IMG/VR virus record: IMGVR_UViG_3300012362_000001
Span: 1-41,118 of that record
DNA length: 41,118 bases
Source of the DNA: a virus
Direction: 5' to 3' (one strand)
Below, one piece after another: positions 1-41,118 of the stretch. A program made the translations under genes and the position numbers. Position 1 is the first letter of the stretch. Every line of letters begins with the position of its first letter. The notes under the pieces were generated by a model that saw nothing but the letters and a program-made list of their open reading frames with translations, was not told the origin of the DNA and did no database searches.

Positions 1-123
1 CTTCTCTGCACTCTTCTCTCTTATCCACAGATCAGAATAAAGAGAAGAGTAGCTTGAACGCTTCAAAGCAACCGATTCAAGCCGCGCTTCAAATTGGGCT
101 TGCGCCCGTTAAAACGCCAGAAA
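1..123. repeat. Terminal direct repeat, left copy (identical to 40996..41118)
   Basis: Base-by-base comparison: 1..123 equals 40996..41118 with no mismatch. This implies a 40,995-bp circular or terminally redundant unit. Confidence 0.95.
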
Positions 124-24041: not shown

Positions 24042-25072
24042 GCTGGTTTGATACCGCCCTGGCTGCTTGGTACCGCTCTAAGGAGCAGGAGCGCGCTATT
24101 AACGCGCAGGGGATTGAGCAAGCAGGACAAGCTTTGACGCAAGGCTTGCAACAGGCCAGGCAGGACAATATCGCAAATCAAGTATCTCGATCGCTAGTAA
24201 ACTCCGGGGCTTATGCTGATCAGAACTCAGGTGCCAACGCGCCTCGGGCGGGACTAGTGAGCGCTGGCACAAATCCAATCACGGGCGCAGTAAATAGAGT
24301 AGCTGCGGGAGTACCGACGGCGGGAACTGCTCCTGTTGGCGGTGGCGGAGGCATGCTTGGATTCCAACTGCGCAACGCATTGGCTAACCAAGGCGTCGAG
24401 AGGGATCTCAAACGCGCCCAGATAGGCTATTACGGAGCGCACGGGGCCGCTGCATTGCAGGGTGCAGCGTCGAATGAATCTTGGCGCAAATCAGAACAGG
24501 ATCGAGCGGATGCTCAGGCCGCAGCTATTAGGGCCGCTACTGCTGGTGGAGGCCCTGCCGCGGCGAGGACTCAAGCGCAAGCGCAAAGAGATGCGCTGAT
24601 GCAGGCACAGAAGGACGCAGAAGCAAAAGCGCAGACACCGGAAACTCTAATGCGCGATTTTGACGTGAATCATGGGAAAGGCGCAGCTCAATCCTTTTAT
24701 GATGCATATACGAACAATACCGGAGCGCGAGGCGATTTCTCAGGTGGTAAATGGATCGGGAACCCGAACGGGCCGTTATTTACTGCAGACCCAGAGGCGC
24801 AGGCATATGGGCAACCTCCAAACGCGGCTGATATAAAAGCGGTTCCGATTACGGAGCTCGACGCTTACAGAACGAACTTACAAAAAGTTCAAGCAGCAGG
24901 CGGAAGGATTGTTCCGCCGATCGTAATGCCAGCACAAGCACCCGGACAGTCAGCACCAGCGCAAGGTGGGAGCGTTCCGACATTTCAAACTACTCAGCAG
25001 GCATTGCAAAGCGGACTTCCGCGCGGCAGCCCGTTCCAAGATCCAACTGGCACAATCCGATACATGCCGTGA
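24038..25072 (+). CDS. A/Q/G-rich protein (344 aa), internal-virion candidate
   Basis: GTGA-coupled. Low-complexity helical composition similar to 20636..22435. Confidence 0.7.
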   Translation: MSWFDTALAAWYRSKEQERAINAQGIEQAGQALTQGLQQARQDNIANQVSRSLVNSGAYADQNSGANAPRAGLVSAGTNPITGAVNRVAAGVPTAGTAPVGGGGGMLGFQLRNALANQGVERDLKRAQIGYYGAHGAAALQGAASNESWRKSEQDRADAQAAAIRAATAGGGPAAARTQAQAQRDALMQAQKDAEAKAQTPETLMRDFDVNHGKGAAQSFYDAYTNNTGARGDFSGGKWIGNPNGPLFTADPEAQAYGQPPNAADIKAVPITELDAYRTNLQKVQAAGGRIVPPIVMPAQAPGQSAPAQGGSVPTFQTTQQALQSGLPRGSPFQDPTGTIRYMP

Positions 25073-25073
25073 T

Positions 25074-27791
25074 ATGGCTGCAGGCGAAGTTCTTCTTAAT
25101 GGAGCGCAGTTAGATGATGGCGGGACAACCAGTCATGCTACTGCTCCAAACGTGCTCGATGGGAATTCTCTCACCTATTGGCATACTGATCCTCAGGCCA
25201 ATACTGGGTATGTCGGAATCGATGCTGGAGCATCGTGCTCACTTACGCGAGTAAGGTTGTCGGCATTTGGAGGCTCCGAGGACGCATTGGTTGGCGGGTT
25301 AGTGCAAGGCGGTTCGTCCAGCGCATTTGCGCAACAATTAGGATTTCAGCAGGCTAATGGCGTAGGAGTAAACGCCACCAATCAAACCAGTGTTCCAGTC
25401 ATCTTTACTGGCGTCCAAACCGCAGGAAATGCCAACATCATTTTCATTTTCAGCAGCGCTTCCGCGGTTATAAGCGGAGTCACCGATACTAAAGGTAACG
25501 TATATACGTTCTTGTATAGGGATAATGTCGCGTCTGGTGCACACGTATCTTGTTACATTGCCACTGGAATAGTCGCTGCCCTTGCTAATGCCAATACGGT
25601 TACAGTTTCCTTGTCAACTGCCAGCGATTATCCTACAGTATTCATATCTGAGTATTCTGGTATTTCCGGAACAGGTTTGGCCACAATAAATGCTCATTCG
25701 TCTAATAGCGGGACCGGTACAGCTATTGATTCTGGCAACATAACGACGACTAATCCAAATACTGTATTAGTGTCTATAGGTGGATTCGGTGATTCACCCG
25801 CAGTAAGCACTGGTCCAGGATTCATACTGAATAAAAACCTTTCTCCGTGGGGCGCGGTGATGGAAGAAAGGCCGGTAATAAGTACCGTTACATCGTCAGG
25901 TTCATTCACTATTAGTACTAGCCAAAGCTGGAATTGTACAGTGGCGGCGTTTAATTTGACTGGCGTATACGATCCAAATGCGTTCCTATTTGTCGCGGCC
26001 AGGCCGCTTACAGGAACCTTGTTAAACGAGTACTCAATTACAGCCGCTCCGCTATTTCGTTATTATCGTTATAGTGCCCCATCTGCCTCCAACGGCAACC
26101 TGGCTGATCTTGATTTAATCGTACAATACACGGCGGGTGTAACTGCAGCAGCGGTATCGCCAACCATACTGCCAACTGGCCGCTCTTTCGATTTGCCGAC
26201 AGTTATAACCCTTAGCAGCATAACAACGGATGCGGCCATTTATTACACCTTAGATGGCACCACGCCAACTGTTGGTTCGATTCTATATAATGCTCCGTTT
26301 GTATTGAGCGCCAGTGCCACACTTAAAGCTATAGCCGTTAGTCCAGGACTCACCAATAGTCGTGTAACGAGCACGAAGTTTAACATACCATCAAGTCTAG
26401 TGTCACTGAATAGTCAAATCGATGACCGAAATTATAAGACATGGGCTGTTGATCCCTTTTTTTTCCTAGATCCTAATAGTGGTTGGTGGTACATGTATGG
26501 AATCAACCTTGATTGTAACGGGATTGCTACATTCGGCTATCTAGGAGTTGATACATATAAATCTGCCGATTTGCGTAACTGGATATTCGTTAACACAGTT
26601 ATAGGTCCATCGCTTGGTACTCAGGTGAACAGTTCCACTTACTTCGCACGCCCTTGGGTGGCGTATAATGCATCTACTGCAAGATACGTCCTGTGGATTA
26701 ATTCTGCGAGTCGGCCAACTGTGTATACGGCTCCATCGCCAGAAGGGCCGTGGACGTTTGTTGCACAATATACCAGCTTAAATGGATGGATTAGCAATGG
26801 AGATCCGTGCTGGTTTTTAGATTCGGATGGAATTAGTGCATACTTGGTATTCACTTCTAATTTCAACGCTGTGTTCAATAAGCTCACGGCCGCATGGACT
26901 AATGTAGATGGAGTCAACTTTGCGTCCTATGATGTAGCATCGACATTTGGCGAACAGGGCGGCTCAGGAGACGGGACAAAATTAGATGGTCCGCACATGT
27001 TTAAGAGGGGAAATACCTATTTCTTCATGTCCAACGCGCAATGGAATTGGGCTCCTATGGTGAATTGCTACGCAACCAGCTCTAATCCTCTAGGGCCGTG
27101 GACAAATAAAGGGAACCCGTTTCAGGCGGTGCAGGGTGGCAACCCGGATAATTCTGTTGCATTTGGTGCTCAAAATAATTATCCAATATTCATTCCTGGA
27201 AGGAACGCATTTATCTATACTGGCGATGCGTACAATACTGGGCTACCCGGCACTGTCAGCACGTCCACTACGGCTAATTTCCAGGCATGCACGTTGTTTT
27301 ATCTTCCTATCATTTTTCCTACGGCGTCCACTATGTCCATAGCATGGAATCCATCATGGGCACTGGATAACGTATTCCCGACGTTATCGGGAGCTCCGGT
27401 TGCACCCAATAATCTAAAGTTGAGTACTTTGGGAAGTGTTACGGCAGGAATTAAGATCAGTTGGAATAATTCTGAACCGAATCCTCATGCGCTCTACGTA
27501 GATCGCTCTAGCGACATGCTTTGGACTATCGGAGTCAGATCCTATTCTGTGCCATTCGGAGCAACATCATTTACGGATACATTCGCGGTTCCTGGCCAAA
27601 AGTACATTTATCGCGTGCGAGCAGTTAACGCGAATGGCACCGCTAATTCGCCGGACGTAACGTCCGGAGGAACATTGGTGACATTCAGGCCATCTAAAGC
27701 AAGGCGGCTTTACAATCTGGAATTGCTAAAGGATGAAATGACGAAGGATGAATACGCCAAACGCGAAGCGTCGATTCTAAATGAGCGATGA
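25074..27791 (+). CDS. Tail spike or fibre with a GH43-like five-bladed propeller
   Basis: 905 aa from ATG 25074 (track ORF 24966..27791). The N-terminal discoidin-like segment is NVLDGNSLTYWHT. A chitobiase-C-like beta-sandwich follows (AAIYYTLDGTTPTVGSILYNAPFVLSASATLKAIAV). GH43-like blades are DPFFFLDPNSGWWYMYG, GDPCWFLDSDGISAYLVF and LDGPHMFKRGNTYFFMSN. The C-terminus is an FN3 domain. Confidence 0.85.
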   Translation: MAAGEVLLNGAQLDDGGTTSHATAPNVLDGNSLTYWHTDPQANTGYVGIDAGASCSLTRVRLSAFGGSEDALVGGLVQGGSSSAFAQQLGFQQANGVGVNATNQTSVPVIFTGVQTAGNANIIFIFSSASAVISGVTDTKGNVYTFLYRDNVASGAHVSCYIATGIVAALANANTVTVSLSTASDYPTVFISEYSGISGTGLATINAHSSNSGTGTAIDSGNITTTNPNTVLVSIGGFGDSPAVSTGPGFILNKNLSPWGAVMEERPVISTVTSSGSFTISTSQSWNCTVAAFNLTGVYDPNAFLFVAARPLTGTLLNEYSITAAPLFRYYRYSAPSASNGNLADLDLIVQYTAGVTAAAVSPTILPTGRSFDLPTVITLSSITTDAAIYYTLDGTTPTVGSILYNAPFVLSASATLKAIAVSPGLTNSRVTSTKFNIPSSLVSLNSQIDDRNYKTWAVDPFFFLDPNSGWWYMYGINLDCNGIATFGYLGVDTYKSADLRNWIFVNTVIGPSLGTQVNSSTYFARPWVAYNASTARYVLWINSASRPTVYTAPSPEGPWTFVAQYTSLNGWISNGDPCWFLDSDGISAYLVFTSNFNAVFNKLTAAWTNVDGVNFASYDVASTFGEQGGSGDGTKLDGPHMFKRGNTYFFMSNAQWNWAPMVNCYATSSNPLGPWTNKGNPFQAVQGGNPDNSVAFGAQNNYPIFIPGRNAFIYTGDAYNTGLPGTVSTSTTANFQACTLFYLPIIFPTASTMSIAWNPSWALDNVFPTLSGAPVAPNNLKLSTLGSVTAGIKISWNNSEPNPHALYVDRSSDMLWTIGVRSYSVPFGATSFTDTFAVPGQKYIYRVRAVNANGTANSPDVTSGGTLVTFRPSKARRLYNLELLKDEMTKDEYAKREASILNER

Positions 27792-30700
27792 TTGGAGCCA
27801 GTTTCCGACAACGCCTCCGGCAGAACATGACTGGAGCGCATTCCCGACAGAGGCACCAGCTGCGAATGATCCGGTGCAGAGCGAGGAACTTTTTCAGCCG
27901 GACACTTCAGGTTCAAGGCGTTTAAACGCTAGATTTAATAATCCTGGAGCATTGGGGTTATCGCCTCTTGGCCGGTCATTTGGAGCGACCGCATCAGGGG
28001 TATATGACACCGGGCATCCTTTTGCCGCATTTCCTACGAAGGAGGCTGGGGCTGCTGCACAGTTTTCCTTATGGCAAAACAGAGAGCACTACCTTGGCCA
28101 CACGTTAAGGGACGCTATTACAAATTGGATAGGACCTGGTGAACATGGCGAGGCTGAGTACATATCACAAAAGACTGGCATACCGTTACATCAGCCAATT
28201 ACCGCTGAGTTATTAAGAAGTCCGCAAGGAATCAGGTTAATGCAGGCTCAAGCCCAGTATGAGGGCCAGAATGTTTTAAGCCCGGAAGAATGGCAGCGCG
28301 CGCAGGATAGGGCTTACAATCATCCACATGGCAGGCAGGATGCAGTCAGGAATAATTTGGCAGATATGGCGCGCCAAATTTCATCGGGTCAAACACCAGC
28401 AATCCCTGATGCCGGCTCAGACGACTGGAGCGCTTTCCCGACAACTTCGCCACAGCCACCGCAGAAACAGGCGCAACCACCAGATAGAAATCTAGTCGAT
28501 GACGGAACCGAGACCGGCAGGAACGCGCGCGCTATCGCAGGAGCACCGGCGCAGCCTCAAGACTGGTCAGCATTCCCGACTACACCTCCTGCACCCCAAG
28601 ATGTTCCACGTGGAACACAAGAGGCTATTACTGGAACTGGAACCAAACAACAATCAACACAAACAGAACAATCATCACAACCACAAGAATTCCAGCCCCA
28701 GAAATCATATTCGCAAGCTACGCAATTTGAGCCTGAGACACAACCACCGCAGGATACCGCATTCGATACGGTCCATAAAACGGTCCAGAACTTCTGGGAG
28801 AACGCGAAACAGAGCGCGGCGCAACTCAACCTCGGGGCGCAAGAGGGAAGCGCTTACAACCCGACGCTGCCCACTGATCCGATTGAACAGGAAATCAGGG
28901 CTACTCAAGCGAGTACGATCTTAAGCGATGAGCAGAAAGCCCAGACTATCGCGGCTTTGCGTAAAGGCCAGACGACAGTTCAAGCCAACCGAATGGGGTC
29001 AATCGCCACCGAGAAGGCCAATATCGCACAGGCTGAGGCCGCAAAGCCAGATAAAGCGTTCCAGCAAGGCGTTCTGGGCCAGGTAAGCTCGTTCGCGGGT
29101 CAAGCAACCCCTTACCTGGCAAGCGGCGCTGCAGGGCCCATTGCGCCGATTCTAATGGCCACACAGATGACAGCAGGCGCGTACGCTAGCGCAATTGACC
29201 GTTCAACCGCCGATATCAAGCGCTTGCATCCAGACTGGGATGATGCGCGGGTGCTTACCGAGGCCAATGCTGTAGCGAACGAAAGCGGAAAAGCGGCTGG
29301 CTTAAGCGGGCTGGCGCTTTCTCTGATTCCGATCCCGGTCGCTGGCCCGCTCATTGCGCGCATTGTGGAGAGAATGGGCATATCAGGCGCAACCATTGCC
29401 ATTGCTCAAGTTTATGCTGGAGCACAGGAAAATATTGCACTTAAAAAGAGCATTAATCCTAGCCAGGACGTATACGAGGGCCTCGACCAGCTCGCAAAAA
29501 CTGGCTTCGTTCAAGGTTTAGCTTTCGGCGGCGCTCATGCTCTTGGAGAGATTGGGATAGGCGGTGCAGTACCTCAACGGCCTGCAGCAGAAGTTCCGAG
29601 ACCGGAGAAAACGCAGGTAACGCCGCCTCCACCAGAGCCAAGGCCTGAAGCACAAACGCAAACGCAACCGCAACCCCAAGGGCAAGCAGCGGCCGTAATT
29701 GAGGATAACGGTGAATCGGTCGAAGAGAGAACTCCTGCACCAACTCCACCAACCCCAGAGCGAATAGCCAGGGCTTACGTAAAGATCGGAGGAAAAGTTT
29801 ACGAGGGACCAAGCCATCCCATGGCGCTCCAGCAATATCTGGAAGCAACCGGTCTGGATCAGAATCCATATTCTTTAGGGGCTGATTACATCGATAGGCA
29901 AGGTGGGACGGAAGGATTCGTTACGAATACCGGTAGGCTGGTGAACGCGGATGAAGCCCATAGGATAGCCACGGCCAGTAACCAGATAACGCCGGGTTAC
30001 ACTAGGGAGCCTGGTATGCCAGCCCTCGTTTCAGAGCAGGTATCAGATACATATCCAAGGGGAGCCAATGAACCGGCCGAATTCTATTCCGGTATCCCGC
30101 TGCCGAAAATCGGGCCGATGATCGAATCTCCGATCGGCCGTGCGATACGCGAGACAGTATTGCCTAACCGGGAAGTCGTAGCGCAATATCCGCACACGGA
30201 CCAACTGCTGACGCAGCTCGATCAATTCCGGGCCGAGCAAGGAGAATTGCAAGGCCGGGTTGCGCAGCTCAACCACCTTTACGGACAGCTCGAAAAGAAG
30301 AATCCGAAGCTGACAGACGAGATCAATTCTATCGGCAAGTATGTCGAGGAGAATCAAGCATTGCCATCCAAGATGAGCCCGGAAGCGCAACGATGGCTAA
30401 ATGAGGCGAATAACGGCCTGTACCGCGATATTGGAGACAGGATGCGAGCAGGCGGATTCAAGACTGTGCTACCCGACGGAACAACGCGGCCGTTTATTGG
30501 CGCTCCACCGGACGTCACCCCGTTCCCTCGCATCATGCGGCCAGATGTCGCCGATGTGCTCGATAACAAGGAGCTCACCGACGCTCAAGGTCGCCTAACG
30601 CCGGAAGCAAGGGCAATCTACGACGAGGGGGTCAGGACGATTAATAAAAATACTGGCAACCCGTTCTTCTCAAGCGAACAGGATTTATTGGATTTGGCCG

Positions 30701-32586
30701 ATCAGCGACGTGCGGCAAACGAAATGAACGCCAAAAACAATCCAGCGATGAGCGGATTAGAGAAGGCGCGAGTCGTCAAATATCCATCCTTTTTCTATAC
30801 CTATAGCCCGCAAGCGATGCTCGACACCATGATGAGGCAATCGACCGAGATCGCGCGCCTCAACGCTTTCGGGCAGAAGATCGGGCGAGCGCCGGATCTA
30901 TTCGATAAGACTGAAGAAGCGATTAATAAGGATCTAAGTCTAAGTGGGAACAAGATTAAAAGCGCCGTAAACTCCATCGGGGACTTGCGTAGCTTCGTTT
31001 ATGGCACCAATCGCCGGGGAGCGGCAACACGGATACTTCGCGGGATCTCAAGCGCAGGCCTCGCGGGTAGCCCGCACACGAGCACCAAGATTGGCCTTTC
31101 AATGCTTTTCAATGTGCCTGCTTATCGCGGGCTGGGACGCACGCTTAGCGGAATCCTCAACACCTCTTTCCGCTACAGCCAGAACATGACCGAGCTCCGG
31201 CGCCTGGGGCTTTCCAACGATGTCATACTCAACCTGCATGATGACCCAACCGCGGTGACGACAGCAGAGCAGAAGGCGAGCAATATCTTTACTGGTGTTC
31301 TGCGGGTCGCGGGCCATGCTCTGGCACAAGATATCGGCAAAAGCGTCACGGCGGCCGCATCGAAGTCTTGGCTGACTAAGTTTGCAATTCCGAAATTGCA
31401 ATCAGATCCAGGAATGACCCGCGGGATCACCAGAATGATCGCAGCGGACATTAGGCGTCGCGGAATGGATCCGGCAGCTTTCAAAGCTCCGAACATTGAC
31501 CCGAAACTGGTCGACCGTTTTATCCGCGAGGACGTGAACGATATCCAAACCGCCTACCGGCCAGAGGATTATCCCGCATGGGCAAGCAAGAGCGAGCTGG
31601 GCTCCCTGGCGTTCCAGTTTGGGCACTGGGCATATAACGGAGCCAGGACCATCATCCGTGATTCAGTCATGCCAATGGCGCGCGCAGCGCAAAATAATGA
31701 TTTCTCGCTCGTCGGCCACTACATGGGACGCCTCGCCGGTATTGCCCTTGCTTCTGCTGGAGCAAGCGAAGCGTGGCGTCAGGTTGATAAGCTTTTCGGA
31801 GGAAGCTCGAACGTCGCGACAATCGCAGAAATCACGCAGGCTTTCATTCGCGGGAACCCGGCAGCAGCGCACCTTCTAGTCAATCGACTGGTCCAGGATA
31901 TCATTGGGGCGCCTACAATCGGTATGTTCGGCGACATTGCAAATTGGGTAAAAGGCATCGCGAGCGGAACCGCTGACACAACGCATTTCTTCAATCCATC
32001 GGCACCGGCAGGCTTCGGATATCTGAAGATTATGCTGACAGCGACCAACCAGGCAATGCAGCAAGGAGGCAAGCTATCTGACCGCCAAAAAGCGAATTTC
32101 GCTTCACAGTTGGCCGGGCTTGTAAAAGGTTACTACGATCTCGCGAACACGGTGCAGGCGCCATTACCGGGCCACGCTGAGGCAATGGGACGCCGGGAGG
32201 ATAAATTCGTCAAGAGCAGGCTCGATCTCTTCTATCAGGAAAATCCCGCATGGGACAAGCGAATGAAAGGAGGCACATTCGCCGGGAACGTGCACACGCC
32301 GTATCTGCAAAACCTCAATGAAGCTCTGATCTCAGGCAACGCGACAAGCGCGAGACAAATCATGCGCCAAATGCAGAAAGATCTAAAGCTTGACTCGAAG
32401 CAGCTTGAGACATCGGTCAGGGAAAGTGTGCGCTCTCACGAGCCGATGCCTACCGGGAAGGCGGGGCAAGCCTTTAGCCTGTGGGCTCGACGGACTCTAA
32501 CCCCGGACGAAACGCAGAGGATGCGAGCGATCCAGGGGGTGTACTCGCGGACGGCGACCCGGGCGGGGATTGCGTTAAAGGAATAA
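27781..32586 (+). CDS. Giant internal-virion / ejection-type protein (1601 aa)
   Basis: The longest ORF. It carries four DWSxFPT motifs and an N-terminal NNPG-containing globular domain (aa about 50-190). P/Q-rich linkers and hydrophobic membrane-like segments (aa about 440-590) follow, then a long helical C-terminal part. Size and position resemble podovirus ejection proteins. Confidence 0.9.
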   Translation: MSDDWSQFPTTPPAEHDWSAFPTEAPAANDPVQSEELFQPDTSGSRRLNARFNNPGALGLSPLGRSFGATASGVYDTGHPFAAFPTKEAGAAAQFSLWQNREHYLGHTLRDAITNWIGPGEHGEAEYISQKTGIPLHQPITAELLRSPQGIRLMQAQAQYEGQNVLSPEEWQRAQDRAYNHPHGRQDAVRNNLADMARQISSGQTPAIPDAGSDDWSAFPTTSPQPPQKQAQPPDRNLVDDGTETGRNARAIAGAPAQPQDWSAFPTTPPAPQDVPRGTQEAITGTGTKQQSTQTEQSSQPQEFQPQKSYSQATQFEPETQPPQDTAFDTVHKTVQNFWENAKQSAAQLNLGAQEGSAYNPTLPTDPIEQEIRATQASTILSDEQKAQTIAALRKGQTTVQANRMGSIATEKANIAQAEAAKPDKAFQQGVLGQVSSFAGQATPYLASGAAGPIAPILMATQMTAGAYASAIDRSTADIKRLHPDWDDARVLTEANAVANESGKAAGLSGLALSLIPIPVAGPLIARIVERMGISGATIAIAQVYAGAQENIALKKSINPSQDVYEGLDQLAKTGFVQGLAFGGAHALGEIGIGGAVPQRPAAEVPRPEKTQVTPPPPEPRPEAQTQTQPQPQGQAAAVIEDNGESVEERTPAPTPPTPERIARAYVKIGGKVYEGPSHPMALQQYLEATGLDQNPYSLGADYIDRQGGTEGFVTNTGRLVNADEAHRIATASNQITPGYTREPGMPALVSEQVSDTYPRGANEPAEFYSGIPLPKIGPMIESPIGRAIRETVLPNREVVAQYPHTDQLLTQLDQFRAEQGELQGRVAQLNHLYGQLEKKNPKLTDEINSIGKYVEENQALPSKMSPEAQRWLNEANNGLYRDIGDRMRAGGFKTVLPDGTTRPFIGAPPDVTPFPRIMRPDVADVLDNKELTDAQGRLTPEARAIYDEGVRTINKNTGNPFFSSEQDLLDLADQRRAANEMNAKNNPAMSGLEKARVVKYPSFFYTYSPQAMLDTMMRQSTEIARLNAFGQKIGRAPDLFDKTEEAINKDLSLSGNKIKSAVNSIGDLRSFVYGTNRRGAATRILRGISSAGLAGSPHTSTKIGLSMLFNVPAYRGLGRTLSGILNTSFRYSQNMTELRRLGLSNDVILNLHDDPTAVTTAEQKASNIFTGVLRVAGHALAQDIGKSVTAAASKSWLTKFAIPKLQSDPGMTRGITRMIAADIRRRGMDPAAFKAPNIDPKLVDRFIREDVNDIQTAYRPEDYPAWASKSELGSLAFQFGHWAYNGARTIIRDSVMPMARAAQNNDFSLVGHYMGRLAGIALASAGASEAWRQVDKLFGGSSNVATIAEITQAFIRGNPAAAHLLVNRLVQDIIGAPTIGMFGDIANWVKGIASGTADTTHFFNPSAPAGFGYLKIMLTATNQAMQQGGKLSDRQKANFASQLAGLVKGYYDLANTVQAPLPGHAEAMGRREDKFVKSRLDLFYQENPAWDKRMKGGTFAGNVHTPYLQNLNEALISGNATSARQIMRQMQKDLKLDSKQLETSVRESVRSHEPMPTGKAGQAFSLWARRTLTPDETQRMRAIQGVYSRTATRAGIALKE

Positions 32587-38008: not shown

Positions 38009-38698
38009 ATGAATATTACATTTAAAACACTGCCAAAGGGTGATCGCAAAGATGCCCGGCAACCCGCAACAATACTTGAACCGTGCCCATTCTGCGGCGC
38101 GAAAGGATTCCTTGGCGCTGAGGCCACTTACTCACATAACGCCAGGGCTGGGGAAATGGATTACGCGATTCGGTGTGGCAATTGCGATTCGCTCGGTCCA
38201 TGGGGTGCAACGGCATATGTCGCGGCTAGTCTCTGGAACAAGCGGGAAGAGCCTCGGAACACACATCGCGGAAGATCGGCAGTCGTAAAGGTGGCCACTG
38301 CGGCCATCGTAGCGCTGTTGGCGTTCATGGTGCCAGTGCAAGCAGGGGAAGACTGGAGCGCATTTCCGACAACTCCACCCAATGTAGGGAATAATCGTTT
38401 CTGGTGCTATGACAGCAGGTATTTTTCTTATCAGGATTCTCCTAAACCTGCGGCTCAAGTTATTGACTCGAGTCCTGGAGTGATAGATGACCCGGCCTGT
38501 CGAGGGCTGATAGTTGCCCAGCTTAAAGATGTAAATAGCACGGTAGCTGATTGGATAATTGAATACAACCGGGCGTTCATGCTGCCGGATAGTAACGGCG
38601 GCGCTAACGTTTATCATGCCACCAACCGAAAGAACGGCAAGATCTGGGAGATAATCGTTGCTTTCCATTTTGAACAGGTACAGGCGCATGACAAATGA
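38009..38698 (+). CDS. Lar-like zinc-ribbon domain, TM segment, DWSAFPTTPP motif and C-terminal domain
   Basis: 229 aa. LEPCPFCGAKG...IRCGNCDSLGPWGATAYVAASLWNKR matches the Lar restriction-alleviation family pattern. The TM segment is VVKVATAAIVALLAFMVPV. GEDWSAFPTTPP starts at aa 113. Confidence 0.8.
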   Translation: MNITFKTLPKGDRKDARQPATILEPCPFCGAKGFLGAEATYSHNARAGEMDYAIRCGNCDSLGPWGATAYVAASLWNKREEPRNTHRGRSAVVKVATAAIVALLAFMVPVQAGEDWSAFPTTPPNVGNNRFWCYDSRYFSYQDSPKPAAQVIDSSPGVIDDPACRGLIVAQLKDVNSTVADWIIEYNRAFMLPDSNGGANVYHATNRKNGKIWEIIVAFHFEQVQAHDK

Positions 38699-38891
38699 GA
38701 CTCGGGCAAAGCTGAGCTACTGGAAGCTTGGCTCGAGAAATCCGCGTTCCAAGCTATCAGTTAACGAAGTCCTCCGAATAAGAGAATTGCGAGCCAGTGG
38801 CGTAGGGGCCGGAACGATAGCTCTGAAGTTCGGGGTCAGTAAAAACACCATCATCAGCATAGGGACCGGAAGAATCTGGCGGCATATTTAA
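38688..38891 (+). CDS. Small helix-turn-helix DNA-binding protein (67 aa)
   Basis: Internal ATG of track ORF 38658..38891. SKLSVNEVLRIRELRASGVGAGTIALKFGVSKNTIISIGTGRIWRHI is a sigma-70 region 4-like HTH pattern common in phages. Confidence 0.65.
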   Translation: MTNETRAKLSYWKLGSRNPRSKLSVNEVLRIRELRASGVGAGTIALKFGVSKNTIISIGTGRIWRHI

Positions 38892-39110
38892 ATGATCGAC
38901 TGGGACAAAGCTGAGATTCACGACATTCAGCGCTTCGGGAAATGGCTCTACTGGGCTGAGGAATGGGCCACGTTCAAGACTCAGACCAATGACGAGCTTA
39001 AGGAATCGTGGCGCTGTGAGCTCCGGTACGTCATGCTCGAGCAGGACAGGCTGCGCGAAGCGATCAACGCCCGGAAATGCATGTACACGAGCCGGGGACC
39101 GTCAATGTGA
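38892..39110 (+). CDS. Hypothetical protein (72 aa)
   Basis: ATG directly after the upstream stop. Confidence 0.55.
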   Translation: MIDWDKAEIHDIQRFGKWLYWAEEWATFKTQTNDELKESWRCELRYVMLEQDRLREAINARKCMYTSRGPSM

Positions 39111-39123
39111 TGCACCCCGTTGC

Positions 39124-39151
39124 TTGACATGTGGAACGCATGTGGTAAAGC
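39124..39151 (+). promoter_or_regulatory. Candidate internal promoter upstream of the methyltransferase
   Basis: TTGACA (39124-39129), 16 nt, then TAAAGC (39146-39151). It shares TTGACATGT-N13-TAAAG with the promoter candidate at 33602. Confidence 0.35.
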
Positions 39152-39171
39152 GTAAACAAAACGTTTATGAC

Positions 39172-40047
39172 ATGAGGAAATACAAGATTAATGCCGTAGA
39201 GGCTCAACTCGAGCTTTTCTCAGCGGAAGCGGCAGAGATAAGGAAGTTGCATACCGAACTTTTAGGGCACGTTCGAATTACGATTAAACAAGCGATTCGA
39301 ATAGGGGAATTGCTTACGGCCGTCAAGGAAGGGCTCGAGCACGGCCGCTGGCTGCCGTGGCTCAAGGCTAATGTCGAGTTTCACGAAAGAACGGCTCGCA
39401 GATATATCCGAGTCTTCGAGAACCGAGAACAACTCAAAACGGACAGCGTGTCCGATTTGACGGACGCCTACCGGCTGCTGGCGGATAAAGTGCCTAGAGA
39501 AGAAAAGCAGGCCAGGGACTTCGCTGATTTCGAGTGGCCACAAGGTAAATTTAGGGTGTTGTATGCTGATCCTCCGTGGACATACAACGATCATAGATTA
39601 GGCAGCGTGGATGGAGGAGGAGCCACGGGAACATACAGCACAATGTCTTTAGAGGGAATTTGCAACCTTGACATACCCAATATCGCATTGCCTGACTCGG
39701 TCTTGTTTTTATGGATAACTTCACCTTTACTTCCTGATGGGCTCACCGTTATGGGTAGATGGGGTTTTACTTATAAAGCGAGTTTTATTTGGGATAAGGT
39801 CCAAGGATTCAACGGCCATTACAATGATGTCAGGCACGAGCTTTTATTAGTTGGCACAAAGGGCACATGCCTGCCTGAAGTAAGTGAGCTTTTAGATAGT
39901 GTGATCGAAATTAAGAAAACTAATCATTCCGAAAAACCAGAGAGATTCCCTGAAATAATTGACTTACTCTACCCTAGTGGCCCACGGTTAGAACTGTTTG
40001 CCAGAAAGCAAAGAAAAGGGTGGAAATGCTTGGGCAACGAAGCCTAG
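39172..40047 (+). CDS. MT-A70-family N6-adenine DNA methyltransferase with an N-terminal DUF3102-like domain
   Basis: 291 aa from ATG 39172 (track ORF 38989..40047). Contains LYADPPWTY (the DPPW motif), FLWITSP, WGFTY...IWDK, HSEKP and LELFARKQRKGWKCLGNE. The N-terminus HGRWLPWLKANVEFHERTARRYIRV is DUF3102-like. Confidence 0.9.
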   Translation: MRKYKINAVEAQLELFSAEAAEIRKLHTELLGHVRITIKQAIRIGELLTAVKEGLEHGRWLPWLKANVEFHERTARRYIRVFENREQLKTDSVSDLTDAYRLLADKVPREEKQARDFADFEWPQGKFRVLYADPPWTYNDHRLGSVDGGGATGTYSTMSLEGICNLDIPNIALPDSVLFLWITSPLLPDGLTVMGRWGFTYKASFIWDKVQGFNGHYNDVRHELLLVGTKGTCLPEVSELLDSVIEIKKTNHSEKPERFPEIIDLLYPSGPRLELFARKQRKGWKCLGNEA

Positions 40048-40532: not shown

Positions 40533-41118
40533 ATGGGCTTCACCAAACTCTTTAGCGACATTCTTTGTTCTTCCGTCTGGAACGAGGACGACAAGACGCG
40601 CATTGTCTGGATAACGCTGCTCGCCTTACGCGGCCCGAACAACGTAGCGCGCGGCTCAATTGACGGCTTAGCGCATCAAGCCCGCGTATCGATTGAAGAC
40701 TGCGAGAAAGCTGTAACGAAGCTTTCGTCACCAGATCAGCACTCAGGGGACCCGGAATTCGACGGGCGCCGAATCGAGAAGGTGCCACACGGCTGGCTTA
40801 TCCTGAACGGCGAGAAGTACCGGGTGCGCAAGGACGGTGAGGACCGCAAAGAGTACATGAACGAGTACATGCGCCAGTACCGCCGTAAACAGTCCGTAAA
40901 CAATCGTAAACAATGTAAACAAAACGTAAATGTTTACGTAAACAAAAACGTAAACAATGTAAACAAAAAGGGCCAAAACGTAAACCCTTCTCTCTCTTCT
41001 CTGCACTCTTCTCTCTTATCCACAGATCAGAATAAAGAGAAGAGTAGCTTGAACGCTTCAAAGCAACCGATTCAAGCCGCGCTTCAAATTGGGCTTGCGC
41101 CCGTTAAAACGCCAGAAA
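40533..41118 (+). CDS. Replication-initiator-like DNA-binding protein, 5' part (open at window end, continues at 3..302)
   Basis: ATG 40533 with no stop before 41118, so it is absent from the ORF track. The N-terminus FTKLFSDILCSSVWNEDDKTRIVWITLLALRGPNNVARGSIDGLAHQARVSIEDCEKAV...GRRIEKVPHGWLILNGEKYR resembles a winged-helix phage replication/DnaD-like module (from recollection). The low-complexity linker coincides with the iteron array. Confidence 0.75.
   Translation, partial: MGFTKLFSDILCSSVWNEDDKTRIVWITLLALRGPNNVARGSIDGLAHQARVSIEDCEKAVTKLSSPDQHSGDPEFDGRRIEKVPHGWLILNGEKYRVRKDGEDRKEYMNEYMRQYRRKQSVNNRKQCKQNVNVYVNKNVNNVNKKGQNVNPSLSSLHSSLLSTDQNKEKSSLNASKQPIQAALQIGLAPVKTPE
40885..40985 (+). repeat. 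Iteron-like array, putative origin of replication
   Basis: GTAAAC occurs at 40885, 40896, 40906, 40915, 40938, 40950, 40959 and 40980. GTAAAT is at 40926 and an inverted GTTTAC at 40932. Spacing is mostly 9-12 bp. Confidence 0.6.
40996..41118. repeat. Terminal direct repeat, right copy (identical to 1..123)
   Basis: Same comparison as the left copy. The repeat lies inside an open reading frame that runs off the window end. Confidence 0.95.
41005..41045. other. Bulged 14-bp dyad next to the iterons (also present at 10..50)
   Basis: ACTCTTCTCTCTTAT pairs with ATAAAGAGAAGAGT, with one bulged C and a 12-nt loop. It lies in a polypyrimidine tract about 20 nt downstream of the last iteron. Confidence 0.4.

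Follow-up and report, generated by a model that had tools for sequence, protein, structure and literature searches.

We describe a gene in the early region of a phage whose 229-aa product (hereinafter ORF229) couples a Lar-family zinc ribbon to a basic stretch, a short hydrophobic segment ending in a signal-peptidase-like P-V-Q-A, the motif DWSAFPTTPP directly after it, a variable linker and a confidently folding helix-plus-three-strand domain of about 70 aa as predicted by AF2. The same short motif is carried four times by the giant protein of this phage, a putative ejection protein. As the zinc ribbon is predicted to lie inside the cell and the motif outside the inner membrane, the protein may block rival phages by mimicry or be drawn to the DNA-entry site, both functions being inferred from sequence alone. 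The window analysed is the entire 41,118-nucleotide stretch of the virus record IMGVR_UViG_3300012362_000001. An earlier note, made from the sequence alone, had drawn attention to the Lar-like ribbon, the adjacent hydrophobic helix, the motif shared with the giant protein and an extra C-terminal domain, and this observation is confirmed. Its interpretation, namely that an early and a virion protein may be recruited to the same partner or site at the envelope, is partly supported. The features of the gene and its neighbors are:

38009..38698 (+), CDS of the 229-aa Lar/signal-anchor/motif/C-domain protein
38075..38245 (+), Lar-family zinc ribbon, aa 23-79 (CPFC...CGNC), predicted cytoplasmic
38246..38281 (+), basic juxtamembrane stretch, aa 80-91 (EEPRNTHRGRSA)
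38282..38344 (+), hydrophobic signal-anchor or internal signal-peptide-like segment, aa 92-112, ending P-V-Q-A
38351..38380 (+), copy of motif A, DWSAFPTTPP, aa 115-124
38381..38461 (+), variable linker, aa 125-151
38462..38674 (+), C-terminal domain predicted to be exported, aa about 152-222 (DSSPGVIDDPAC...IIVAFH), predicted as one helix plus three antiparallel strands
38688..38891 (+), downstream HTH gene
38989..40047 (+), neighboring DUF3102 + MT-A70 DNA methyltransferase

The ORF runs from ATG to TGA, and its start is supported by six full-length or near-full-length orthologues that begin in the same way and show the same architecture. The public gene call for this contig (P0004, 135 aa) starts at an internal GTG and misses the Lar half, but the orthologues show that the long ORF is the real one. 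The Pfam profile PF14354 (Lar_restr_allev) matches aa 23-79 over profile positions 3-57 of 58 with 35.9 bits, above the gathering score of 28.6, and PHROG 599 ("Lar-like") also matches, whereas the score against the narrower NCBIfam model TIGR03655 (anti_R_Lar) is below its cut-off (33.6 against 39.6 bits). The two CxxC pairs (C26/C29 and C56/C59) are conserved in all full-length orthologues, and the ribbon is the most conserved part of the protein, with 85% identity among orthologues.

The hydrophobic core at aa 92-110 (VVKVATAAIVALLAFMVPV) has a mean Kyte-Doolittle score of 2.36, with five K/R in the 15 residues preceding it and none in the 15 following it, which fits the positive-inside rule. 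The P-x-Q/H-A ending is conserved in the orthologues, and the segment resembles the N-terminal signal peptide of P0029, a relative of the C-terminal domain, which reads LLLAFTMPVHPA. The C-terminal domain itself belongs to an unnamed family (DNPGxLDDPxC...Y.VT.K.G...V.VA.H), whose other members are proteins of 95-140 aa. An exhaustive profile search recovered 13 standalone relatives over the 70-75 aa domain with E-values from 9e-11 to 4e-4, and all 14 full-length remote relatives are 94-143 aa proteins with a classical N-terminal signal peptide, encoded in phage early or replication modules. In the phage contig L003, the relative sits in the same early gene neighborhood, a short way downstream of the PD-(D/E)XK exonuclease. 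The internal hydrophobic segment of ORF229 is positionally equivalent to these signal peptides, lying directly upstream of the domain. Taken together, these observations suggest that the motif and the C-terminal domain are exported, a prediction resting on hydrophobicity, charge bias and the signal-peptide-bearing relatives. The AF2 model of the C-terminal domain has a pLDDT of 86-95, whereas the linker falls below 50; the full-length model was unusable, with a mean pLDDT of 42.6, and hence nothing structural links the parts.

A six-frame scan of the window finds DWSxFP only five times, once in ORF229 and four times in the N-terminal region of the giant protein (aa 4, 17, 215 and 261), the last of these being an exact 10-mer match. 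Every shared 6-mer or longer between ORF229 and the six-frame translation of the window is one of these copies, with 11 such matches against 0.3 expected from shuffles. The copies use different synonymous codons, indicating conservation at the protein level rather than a recent DNA duplication. The motif is present in five of the six orthologues, while the flanking linker is only 33% identical. The relevant features of the giant protein are:

27781..32586 (+), giant protein (1601 aa), a putative ejection/internal virion protein
27790..27819 (+), motif A copy 1 (DWSQFPTTPP), at the extreme N-terminus (MSDDWSQ...)
27829..27858 (+), motif A copy 2 (DWSAFPTEAP)
27886..28320 (+), "NNPGALG" module, aa 36-180, flanked by the motif pairs
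28423..28452 (+), motif A copy 3 (DWSAFPTTSP)
28561..28590 (+), motif A copy 4 (DWSAFPTTPP)
29311..29367 (+), strongest hydrophobic segment of the giant protein, aa 511-529 (Kyte-Doolittle score 1.92)

The giant protein is encoded by the last gene of the structural block, after the GH43 fibre protein, and has the orthologues P0008-P0011. Its status as an ejected protein, which the earlier note took for granted, is inferred from this position, its size and its architecture. The NNPGALG module is mobile, being 66-73% identical in four otherwise unrelated large proteins, but it has no Pfam or PDB match and belongs to no recognised enzyme family. Analogous motif-bearing proteins elsewhere carry SLT or glucosaminidase-like modules at the same place. 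The giant protein as a whole had no PHROG or PDB hit.

We next investigated if the motif type varies between phages. The giant orthologues P0009 and P0010, at 64-67% identity, replace all four copies of motif A with PWDNDPVI (motif B) at W-aligned positions. Their contig overlaps, with 99.5% identity over 4182 nt, the contig encoding the one ORF229 orthologue whose motif A is degenerate (DDRSAFPRADS) and which keeps a B-like EPWLGDPIIG (PWxGDPxI). In contrast, the two phages with A-type giants keep an intact motif A in the Lar-membrane protein; in a 42%-identical relative, the motif co-occurs with a DWSxFPT-bearing giant protein. However, this co-variation rests on three phage types, one of which was stitched from two contigs from sister samples, and the match is not one-to-one, as the phage L001 keeps a B-like motif although its giant is A-type. 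Orthologues carry the motif-B-like EPWMGDPVIT in the linker, and this is deleted in the window.

Motif B is widespread. NPWDNDP was found in 52 IMG/VR loci against about 7 expected, nearly always at the extreme N-terminus of ORFs of 600-2285 aa and often flanking SLT or glucosaminidase-like modules. It is also found in prophages of Stenotrophomonas, Luteimonas, Rhizobium, Bosea and Acidobacteriota, all of which are diderms. A phmmer search of the window's giant protein against 47 motif-B-bearing large ORFs gave no homology, leading us to reject the idea that all motif-bearing giants form one family. An independent second case was found in the unrelated phage L077, where a 146-aa two-TM protein of ambiguous topology carries GNPWDNDPIIW and GNFWDNDVLIRPAPG, and lies 1 kb from a 756-aa protein that starts MANPWDNDEIIRPAP and also carries ANPWDNDVVIRPAPG. 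A broader IMG/VR scan for small membrane proteins with motif B found no further clear case beyond L063/L077. A metagenome scan for motif B, in a collection lacking the samples of the relatives' own contigs, did not return those contigs but yielded one informative unrelated phage, L032. In contrast, two scans of IMG/VR for motif A returned 16 hits, consistent with a rough estimate for chance and mostly in frames interrupted by stop codons; motif A therefore seems confined to this clade, which is absent from IMG/VR.

Thus, the descriptive claims of the earlier note all hold, including the points it had set as tests: Lar similarity on profile search, the hydrophobic segment as a predicted export or anchor signal, the presence of the motif in orthologues and its co-occurrence with a DWSxFPT-bearing giant. 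The C-terminal domain it left unassigned is real. The idea of a shared partner or site is strengthened by the switching of motif type between phages in both proteins and by the similar pattern in the unrelated L077, although no partner was identified. However, the hydrophobic segment looks more like an internal cleavable signal peptide than a classical TM helix. Moreover, the two motif-bearing regions can only share the periplasm during a secondary infection or at the site left by the primary one, which favors competition, i.e. exclusion, at least as much as co-recruitment.

Our preferred but tentative reading is that ORF229 is a Sec-inserted bitopic protein with its N-terminus in the cytoplasm and its C-terminus in the periplasm. 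The hydrophobic segment would be a former signal peptide that now lies internally and may still be cut after P-V-Q-A; a predicted cleavage after VQA or LQA would leave the motif at the new N-terminus, mirroring the MSDDWSQFP of the giant. In this view, the motif is a docking peptide for a conserved envelope partner, placed by the giant at its extreme N-terminus and at three further sites around its putative cell-wall-acting module. By displaying it from the inner membrane, or as a released periplasmic protein, ORF229 would occupy or compete for that partner and prevent the ejection proteins of later-arriving phages of the same motif type from building a DNA conduit, i.e. superinfection exclusion by molecular mimicry. 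The Lar ribbon would be a separate cytoplasmic function on the same polypeptide, probably modulation of restriction-modification. A precedent is the inner-membrane protein SieA of P22, which blocks the ejection-protein conduit (PMC10883804). What our analysis establishes is the architecture, the predicted export signal, the sharing of the motif, the switching of its type and the generality of motif B, whereas the topology, the cleavage, the ejection role of the giant, the partner, the exclusion phenotype and any restriction-alleviating activity are inferences. This reading is weakened by the absence of sequence similarity to known exclusion proteins or PADLOC models (PHROGs returned only the Lar family for ORF229 and nothing for the C-terminal domain), and the strong conservation of the Lar ribbon is not explained by an exclusion role. 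Further, the window shows no integrase, and exclusion in a purely lytic cycle is known, as with Imm and Sp of T4, but is less common.

The main rival, which we consider less likely, is co-recruitment, the idea raised by the earlier note. In the form considered here, the periplasmic motif would bring the protein to the envelope partner or site used by the giant, thereby placing the Lar ribbon at the cytoplasmic mouth of the DNA-entry conduit to modulate a Type I restriction-modification enzyme while the rest of the genome enters. The conservation of the ribbon and its score above the Pfam threshold are consistent with this, as are weak but consistent tblastn hits to genes annotated as restriction alleviation, including that of Rac, and the position of the gene two genes upstream of an orphan MT-A70 methyltransferase. 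Likewise, lambda Ral, the functional analogue of Lar, acts through HsdM to speed up modification (PMC12707154), and the protein's own motif type is retained in all three phage types. However, cleavage after VQA would uncouple the Lar half from the motif, and the protein can only be made after its own gene has entered the cell. The L077 protein has motifs and TM segments but no Lar domain, and the standalone C-domain relatives also lack one, suggesting that motif display does not need Lar. Moreover, orthologues also carry a motif type that their own giant lacks, as in L001.

It is also conceivable, though unlikely, that the architecture is an incidental fusion of a Lar gene with a downstream gene for a secreted early protein upon loss of a stop codon, with the internal signal peptide still cleaved and the halves acting independently. 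The motif would then belong only to the secreted protein, which might, for example, inhibit or regulate the cell-wall-acting module of ejection proteins, as T4 Spackle does. The segment indeed has signal-peptide features (a short h-region, P at -4, and small residues at -3 and -1), the C-terminal domain exists as a standalone secreted protein in the same early gene neighborhood in other phages, and even the public gene caller called only the C-terminal 135 aa. However, the fusion is conserved in all six orthologues down to 50% identity, and no relative was found with adjacent, separate Lar and secreted-protein genes; this reading also overlaps our preferred one for the periplasmic half. A cytoplasmic virion-incorporation (capsid-targeting) or chaperone-binding signal, with ORF229 as a membrane-tethered assembly factor or packaged protein, is very unlikely: while the motifs sit at the extreme N-terminus of the giants, as do capsid-targeting sequences in T4 internal proteins, in ORF229 the motif follows a predicted export signal and precedes a domain whose relatives all carry signal peptides, the opposite topology would put the four cysteines of a zinc ribbon in the periplasm, and the occurrence of motif B in giants without detectable homology to each other or to this one better fits a conserved host partner. 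Chance resemblance, despite the Pro/Thr-rich context of the motif and the Q-, P- and T-rich linker of the giant, is effectively refuted by the exact 10-mer plus three 6-8-mer matches against 0.3 expected 6-mers, the conservation of the motif between diverging flanks and the concerted switch of all four sites to motif B.

A broader and more speculative possibility, which we consider unlikely but not excluded, is that phage ejection proteins carry interchangeable N-terminal docking peptides, of which DWSxFPT and NPWDNDP[IV]V are two types sharing a W-x3-P skeleton, that engage a conserved periplasmic host factor. Early membrane or periplasmic decoys displaying the same peptide types would then create a motif-specific code for superinfection exclusion. 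ORF229 would be one such decoy fused to an anti-restriction ribbon, with some orthologues displaying two types at once and thereby also excluding sister phages.

The closest known systems share some features with ORF229 and differ in others. Annotated Lar proteins are standalone and soluble, at about 53-67 aa (genes of 159-201 nt); the ribbon of ORF229, of about 57 aa, is about 30% identical to annotated phage Lar proteins over 86% of the domain and is likewise encoded in a phage early region next to a DNA methyltransferase, but it forms the N-terminal third of a larger protein with a predicted export signal and periplasmic half. P22 SieA, which acts on the ejection proteins gp16 and gp20 (PMC10883804), is also a phage-encoded inner-membrane protein linked to the ejection-protein conduit, a link that is only proposed for ORF229, but it shows no sequence similarity, is prophage-expressed and polytopic, and no peptide motif shared with its target has been described. 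T4 Spackle (Sp) and Imm are small early proteins exported to the periplasm or membrane by a lytic phage, with Sp inhibiting the cell-wall-degrading tail lysozyme of superinfecting phage. The standalone C-domain relatives have the same size and layout, with a signal peptide plus about 75 aa, but the predicted fold differs, and there is no homology and no evidence of enzyme inhibition. The colicin TolB-box and other Tol- or Ton-dependent translocation epitopes are similarly short, Trp-containing, Asp/Asn/Pro/Gly-rich linear motifs in disordered N-terminal regions of proteins that must cross the periplasm, and mimic a host ligand to bind a periplasmic protein; however, there is no sequence match, and the present motifs sit on putative phage ejection proteins and a predicted phage membrane protein. 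Finally, zinc-binding anti-sigma factors share the overall layout of an N-terminal cytoplasmic zinc-binding domain, a single hydrophobic segment and an extracytoplasmic (sensor) domain, but the zinc domain of ORF229 is Lar-type, not zf-HC2, no Pfam hit other than Lar was found, and no sigma factor gene is adjacent.

How short-tailed phages get their ejection proteins to assemble a conduit at the right place in the periplasm, and how exclusion proteins recognise them, is poorly understood. A short peptide that marks the extreme N-terminus of large ejection-type proteins in many unrelated phages of diderm bacteria, switches type in concert at four sites between sister phages and is copied onto predicted early membrane proteins offers a concrete and inexpensive experimental handle on the host factor and on exclusion by mimicry. 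Our analysis also adds an undescribed family of small, predicted secreted phage early proteins, and indicates that Lar-type ribbons can be membrane-tethered, as inferred from sequence, which bears on where restriction alleviation takes place.

Other searches delimit these findings. Searches by tblastn and megablast with the ORF and 21 kb of the window against 50,697 phage records gave no match, and only the isolated ribbon gave weak hits (E 0.2-5) to annotated Lar genes; tblastn with the short peptides against cultured phages also gave no match. Foldseek searches with the C-terminal model against PDB and BFVD gave no hit at E below 1e-3, and PDB sequence and profile searches with ORF229, the giant protein, the NNPGALG module and the C-domain family gave nothing. 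Pfam, PHROG and PADLOC likewise gave nothing for the C-domain relatives and the L077 membrane protein. No tRNAs were found and a genome scan with the NNPGALG module recovered nothing; hosts were obtained only for the motif-B prophages. A literature search found no paper containing the motif strings. A promoter and terminator scan gave counts at chance level. With respect to the immediate context, the DUF3102 + MT-A70 methyltransferase points to an anti-restriction neighborhood, and the ATG of the downstream gene, which shows HTH_38/HTH_7 hits, overlaps the end of ORF229 by 11 nt, suggesting translational coupling.

The ORF at 38009..38698 (+), hereafter ORF229, is real and encodes a protein of 229 aa, whose start is supported by six orthologues (50-62% identity) that begin in the same way and have the same layout. 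The public annotation of this contig calls only a product corresponding to the last 135 aa, from an internal GTG (P0004); this call is almost certainly wrong and hides the Lar fusion in protein databases. The window is a complete genome of 41,118 bp with 52% GC, no tRNAs and predicted genes almost all on the + strand. Its completeness is shown by an exact direct terminal repeat of 123 bp (1..123 and 40996..41118), which implies either circular closure or true terminal repeats, with the break point lying inside the early region. We found no relative of it among 50,697 cultured-phage records, though a weak SU10-type portal hit and a capsid PHROG mark the structural block. Dissection of the protein revealed the following parts:

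aa 23-79, a four-cysteine zinc ribbon of the Lar type
aa 80-91, a basic stretch
aa 92-110, a hydrophobic segment
aa 115-124, the motif DWSAFPTTPP
aa 125-151, a variable linker
aa about 152-222, a C-terminal domain

The zinc ribbon matches Pfam PF14354 (Lar_restr_allev) at 35.9 bits, above the gathering score of 28.6, as well as PHROG 599, but falls below the cut-off of the narrower NCBIfam TIGR03655 (33.6 against 39.6 bits). When used alone in tblastn searches it recovers only weak hits (E 0.2-5); however, these fall consistently on genes of 53-67 aa annotated as restriction alleviation, including one in a Rac-type phage. It is the most conserved part of the protein, with 85% identity among orthologues. 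The hydrophobic segment has a mean Kyte-Doolittle score of 2.36 and is preceded by 5 K/R in 15 residues and followed by none in 15, which predicts an N-in, C-out orientation. Its hydrophobic core is only about 14-16 residues long, and in the window protein and every full-length orthologue it ends in P-x-(Q/H)-(A/V), with the motif following at once. The orthologue P0005 (10001..10786 of the related 40.6-kb contig L001) has a 29-aa insertion (PLRAMDLEDTVPAWLTLDYDESYLFLGPE) between the segment and the motif, and V instead of A at the predicted -1 cleavage position. Thus, the earlier note's observation of a Lar-like ribbon joined to a hydrophobic helix, a shared motif and an extra domain holds, but the segment has the look of a signal peptide with a type I signal-peptidase site rather than of a long TM helix. 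The linker is only 33% identical among orthologues and is predicted to be disordered. While the full-length structural model was unusable, the C-terminal domain is confidently predicted (pLDDT 86-95), once a deeper alignment is supplied, to fold as one helix packed on three antiparallel strands.

We next investigated the distribution of the C-terminal domain. An exhaustive profile search of 1.84 billion representative proteins recovered 18 proteins, which, apart from the orthologues, comprise 13 small proteins, and a k-mer-based search added four more. All 14 full-length ones consist of a classical N-terminal signal peptide followed by the same domain of 70-75 aa. In one of these, P0029, the signal peptide reads LLLAFTMPVHPA, which is close to ALLAFMVPVQAG in ORF229. 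Their contigs are phage early or replication modules carrying ERF, a PD-(D/E)XK exonuclease, DNA polymerase A or an AAA_25 helicase. In the contig L003 the gene lies in the same neighborhood as ORF229, about 1.2 kb downstream of the exonuclease and after a small RusA-like ORF, whereas another standalone relative, P0036 (contig L006, 2251..5144), sits next to an integrase-like gene and a YcaO/TfuA pair on a possibly integrated element. Searches for counterparts of this family in Pfam, PHROG, PADLOC, PDB and BFVD recovered none. None of the standalone members has a Lar ribbon or the motif. Taken together with the charge bias, this makes export of aa 113-229 the only reasonable topology, as predicted from sequence alone.

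A six-frame scan of the window showed that DWSxFP occurs five times, once in ORF229 and four times in a giant protein, the relevant features of which are:

27781..32586, the giant ORF of 1601 aa, with motif copies at aa 4, 17, 215 and 261
27886..28320, the 'NNPGALG' module of the giant (aa 36-180), between the motif pairs

The first copy is at the extreme N-terminus of the giant, MSDDWSQFPTTPP. All shared 6-mers or longer between ORF229 and the six-frame translation of the window are these copies, with 11 observed against 0.3 expected. The copies differ at many synonymous positions, and the motif is kept in 5 of 6 orthologues of ORF229. The giant orthologue P0011 (42% identity), which is encoded on the same contig, L001, as the Lar-membrane orthologue P0005, also has four DWSxFPT copies. 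Hence, the shared motif is real, specific and selected.

Two other orthologues of the giant, P0009 and P0010, are 64-67% identical to the window protein over aa 18-680 but have no DWSxFPT (motif A). At the same four places, with the tryptophans aligned and the flanks conserved, they instead carry PW(L/A/D)(D/N)D(P/L)VI(S/T/A), which we call motif B; both motifs share a W-x3-P-x3-P skeleton. The Lar-membrane orthologues P0001, P0003, P0005 and P0006 carry a B-like element (EPWMGDPVIT or EPWLGDPIIG) in the linker in addition to motif A, while the window protein, P0002 and P0007 lack it. The contig of P0009 (L023) overlaps that of P0006 (L002) by 4182 nt at 99.5% identity, so they represent one phage type. 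In this type the giant is B-type, and the Lar-membrane protein has a degenerate A motif (DDRSAFPRADS, with the tryptophan lost) and keeps the B-like element. Across the phage types the Lar-membrane protein always retains the motif type of its own giant, although this co-variation rests on three phage types only. In these loci neither motif occurs in any other reading frame or gene.

Table. Motif types in the giant and Lar-membrane proteins of the three phage types.
Phage type; giant protein; Lar-membrane protein
Window; 4 x A; A
L001; 4 x A; A plus B-like
L023 / L002; 4 x B; degenerate A plus B-like

To examine the wider distribution of motif B, we scanned IMG/VR with a DNA pattern for NPWDNDP, which returned 52 loci against a rough estimate of about 7 by chance. 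In nearly all of these the motif is in frame at the extreme N-terminus, M(A)NPWDNDP(I/V)V, of ORFs of 600-2285 aa; it is often repeated, and the host GC content ranges from 38 to 69%. A different context is seen in low-GC phages (L042, L069 and L085; GC 38-39%), which carry ASNPWDNDPKFKGK inside acidic, coiled-coil-like proteins of about 250 aa that have no hydrophobic segment. In several loci the two copies flank a cell-wall enzyme module, namely an SLT lytic transglycosylase in L071 and L032 and a glucosaminidase-like module in L041. In the window this slot is occupied by the 145-aa NNPGALG module, which is 66-73% identical in four otherwise unrelated large proteins (P0012-P0015), where it lies at different positions. 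It gave no match in Pfam, PDB or PHROG, but its placement raises the possibility that it is an unrecognized cell-wall-acting domain. It contains FAAFPT, which resembles motif A, and in P0013 and P0014 it is preceded by DSFFPS and DSLFPS. In P0011 the module is a different, weakly expansin/DPBB-like segment.

These motif-B proteins show no detectable homology to the giant of the window; the motif is therefore portable and would be defined by its partner, not by the protein that carries it. A genome scan found the same N-terminal motif in prophage-borne large ORFs of Stenotrophomonas maltophilia, Luteimonas, [Pseudomonas] boreopolis, Rhizobium, Bosea, Bryobacterales and another Acidobacteriota, all of which are diderms. 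Additionally, gammaproteobacterial MAGs, including Steroidobacteraceae, encode secreted proteins (L096 1235..1732; L100 2084..2791; L101 5562..6074; L105 7073..7648) whose predicted signal peptide ends in ALA and is followed directly by ANPWDNDPAVQEVLKLR. These sequences look NTF2/DUF4440-like by eye, and could represent a host protein carrying motif B at its mature N-terminus or a mere coincidence. In the phage locus L077 (identical in L063), a 146-aa protein with an N-terminal and a C-terminal hydrophobic segment carries between them GNPWDNDPIIW and GNFWDNDVLIRPAPG. It lies 1 kb downstream of a 756-aa protein that starts MANPWDNDEIIRPAP, carries ANPWDNDVVIRPAPG, and matches a PHROG of large virion-associated hydrolases. 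The extended flavor WDNDV(V/L)IRPAPG is shared within that phage. This constitutes an independent instance, without a Lar domain, of a small phage membrane protein copying the motif of the large protein of its phage.

The analysis thus establishes the architecture of ORF229, its export signal, the family of its C-terminal domain, the specificity and selection of the motif, the concerted switch of motif type, and the wide use of motif B at the N-termini of large phage proteins next to cell-wall enzymes. In contrast, it is an inference that the giant is an ejection protein whose N-terminal part works in the periplasm and that the motif is a docking peptide for a conserved envelope component, as is any function ascribed to ORF229. 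In this view, the N-terminus of the giant would reach the periplasm only on injection, and ORF229 would be made only afterwards; therefore, the two motif-bearing regions could meet the same partner only at the site left by the primary infection or during a secondary infection. We favor competition: the exported half of ORF229, either tethered or released by signal peptidase (in which case the motif would sit at the new N-terminus, as in the giant), would occupy the docking site and prevent later phages of the same motif type from building a conduit. P22 SieA provides a precedent for an inner-membrane protein that acts on ejection proteins (PMC10883804). T4 Spackle provides a precedent for a small exported early protein that acts on an incoming cell-wall enzyme. 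The presence of two motif types in some orthologues and the absence of a Lar domain in the L077 case fit a decoy better than a self-targeting device.

The main rival builds on the proposal of the earlier note, which is only partly supported, that the motif brings the protein to the same partner or site at the envelope as the giant; in this reading the motif would place the Lar ribbon at the cytoplasmic mouth of the entry site. It is supported by the strong conservation of the ribbon, the action of Ral-type proteins through HsdM (PMC12707154), and a nearby methyltransferase, found in the region downstream of ORF229:

38688..38891, a gene with HTH_38/HTH_7 hits, probably starting at an ATG that overlaps the end of ORF229 by 11 nt (ATGACAAATGA)
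38989..40047, a gene for a DUF3102 + MT-A70 methyltransferase

Together with the Lar ribbon these look like an anti-restriction neighborhood. A third possibility is an incidental fusion of two early genes whose products are separated by signal peptidase. These three readings are not mutually exclusive for the periplasmic half.

In terms of known systems, the ribbon is a member of the broad Pfam Lar family but not of the curated NCBIfam subfamily, and it departs from the small, soluble format of the family, while the predicted periplasmic domain belongs to an undescribed family. We found no similarity to any described exclusion protein, and no paper in the library searched contains the motif strings. 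The assignment of ORF229 as an envelope-located exclusion factor is putative. What is new here is a pair of interchangeable peptide motifs shared between ejection-type proteins and early membrane proteins.

The giant gene itself also varies in organization. While it is a single ORF in the window, in three related contigs (L001 1..4039; L002 1..3429; L023 5782..10604) it is split into a part of about 940-1018 aa and a part of about 504 aa, with an Endonuclease_7 (homing-endonuclease-like) ORF of 150-167 aa between them; in L023 the 504-aa part is split further into 364 and 134 aa. Directly upstream of the giant in the window (24966..27791) is a gene for a 941-aa protein combining F5/8-type-C-like, CHB_HEX_C / Fn3_assoc and GH43 domains, which is probably a glycan-degrading receptor-binding protein; the related L023 adds a pectate-lyase-like protein upstream.
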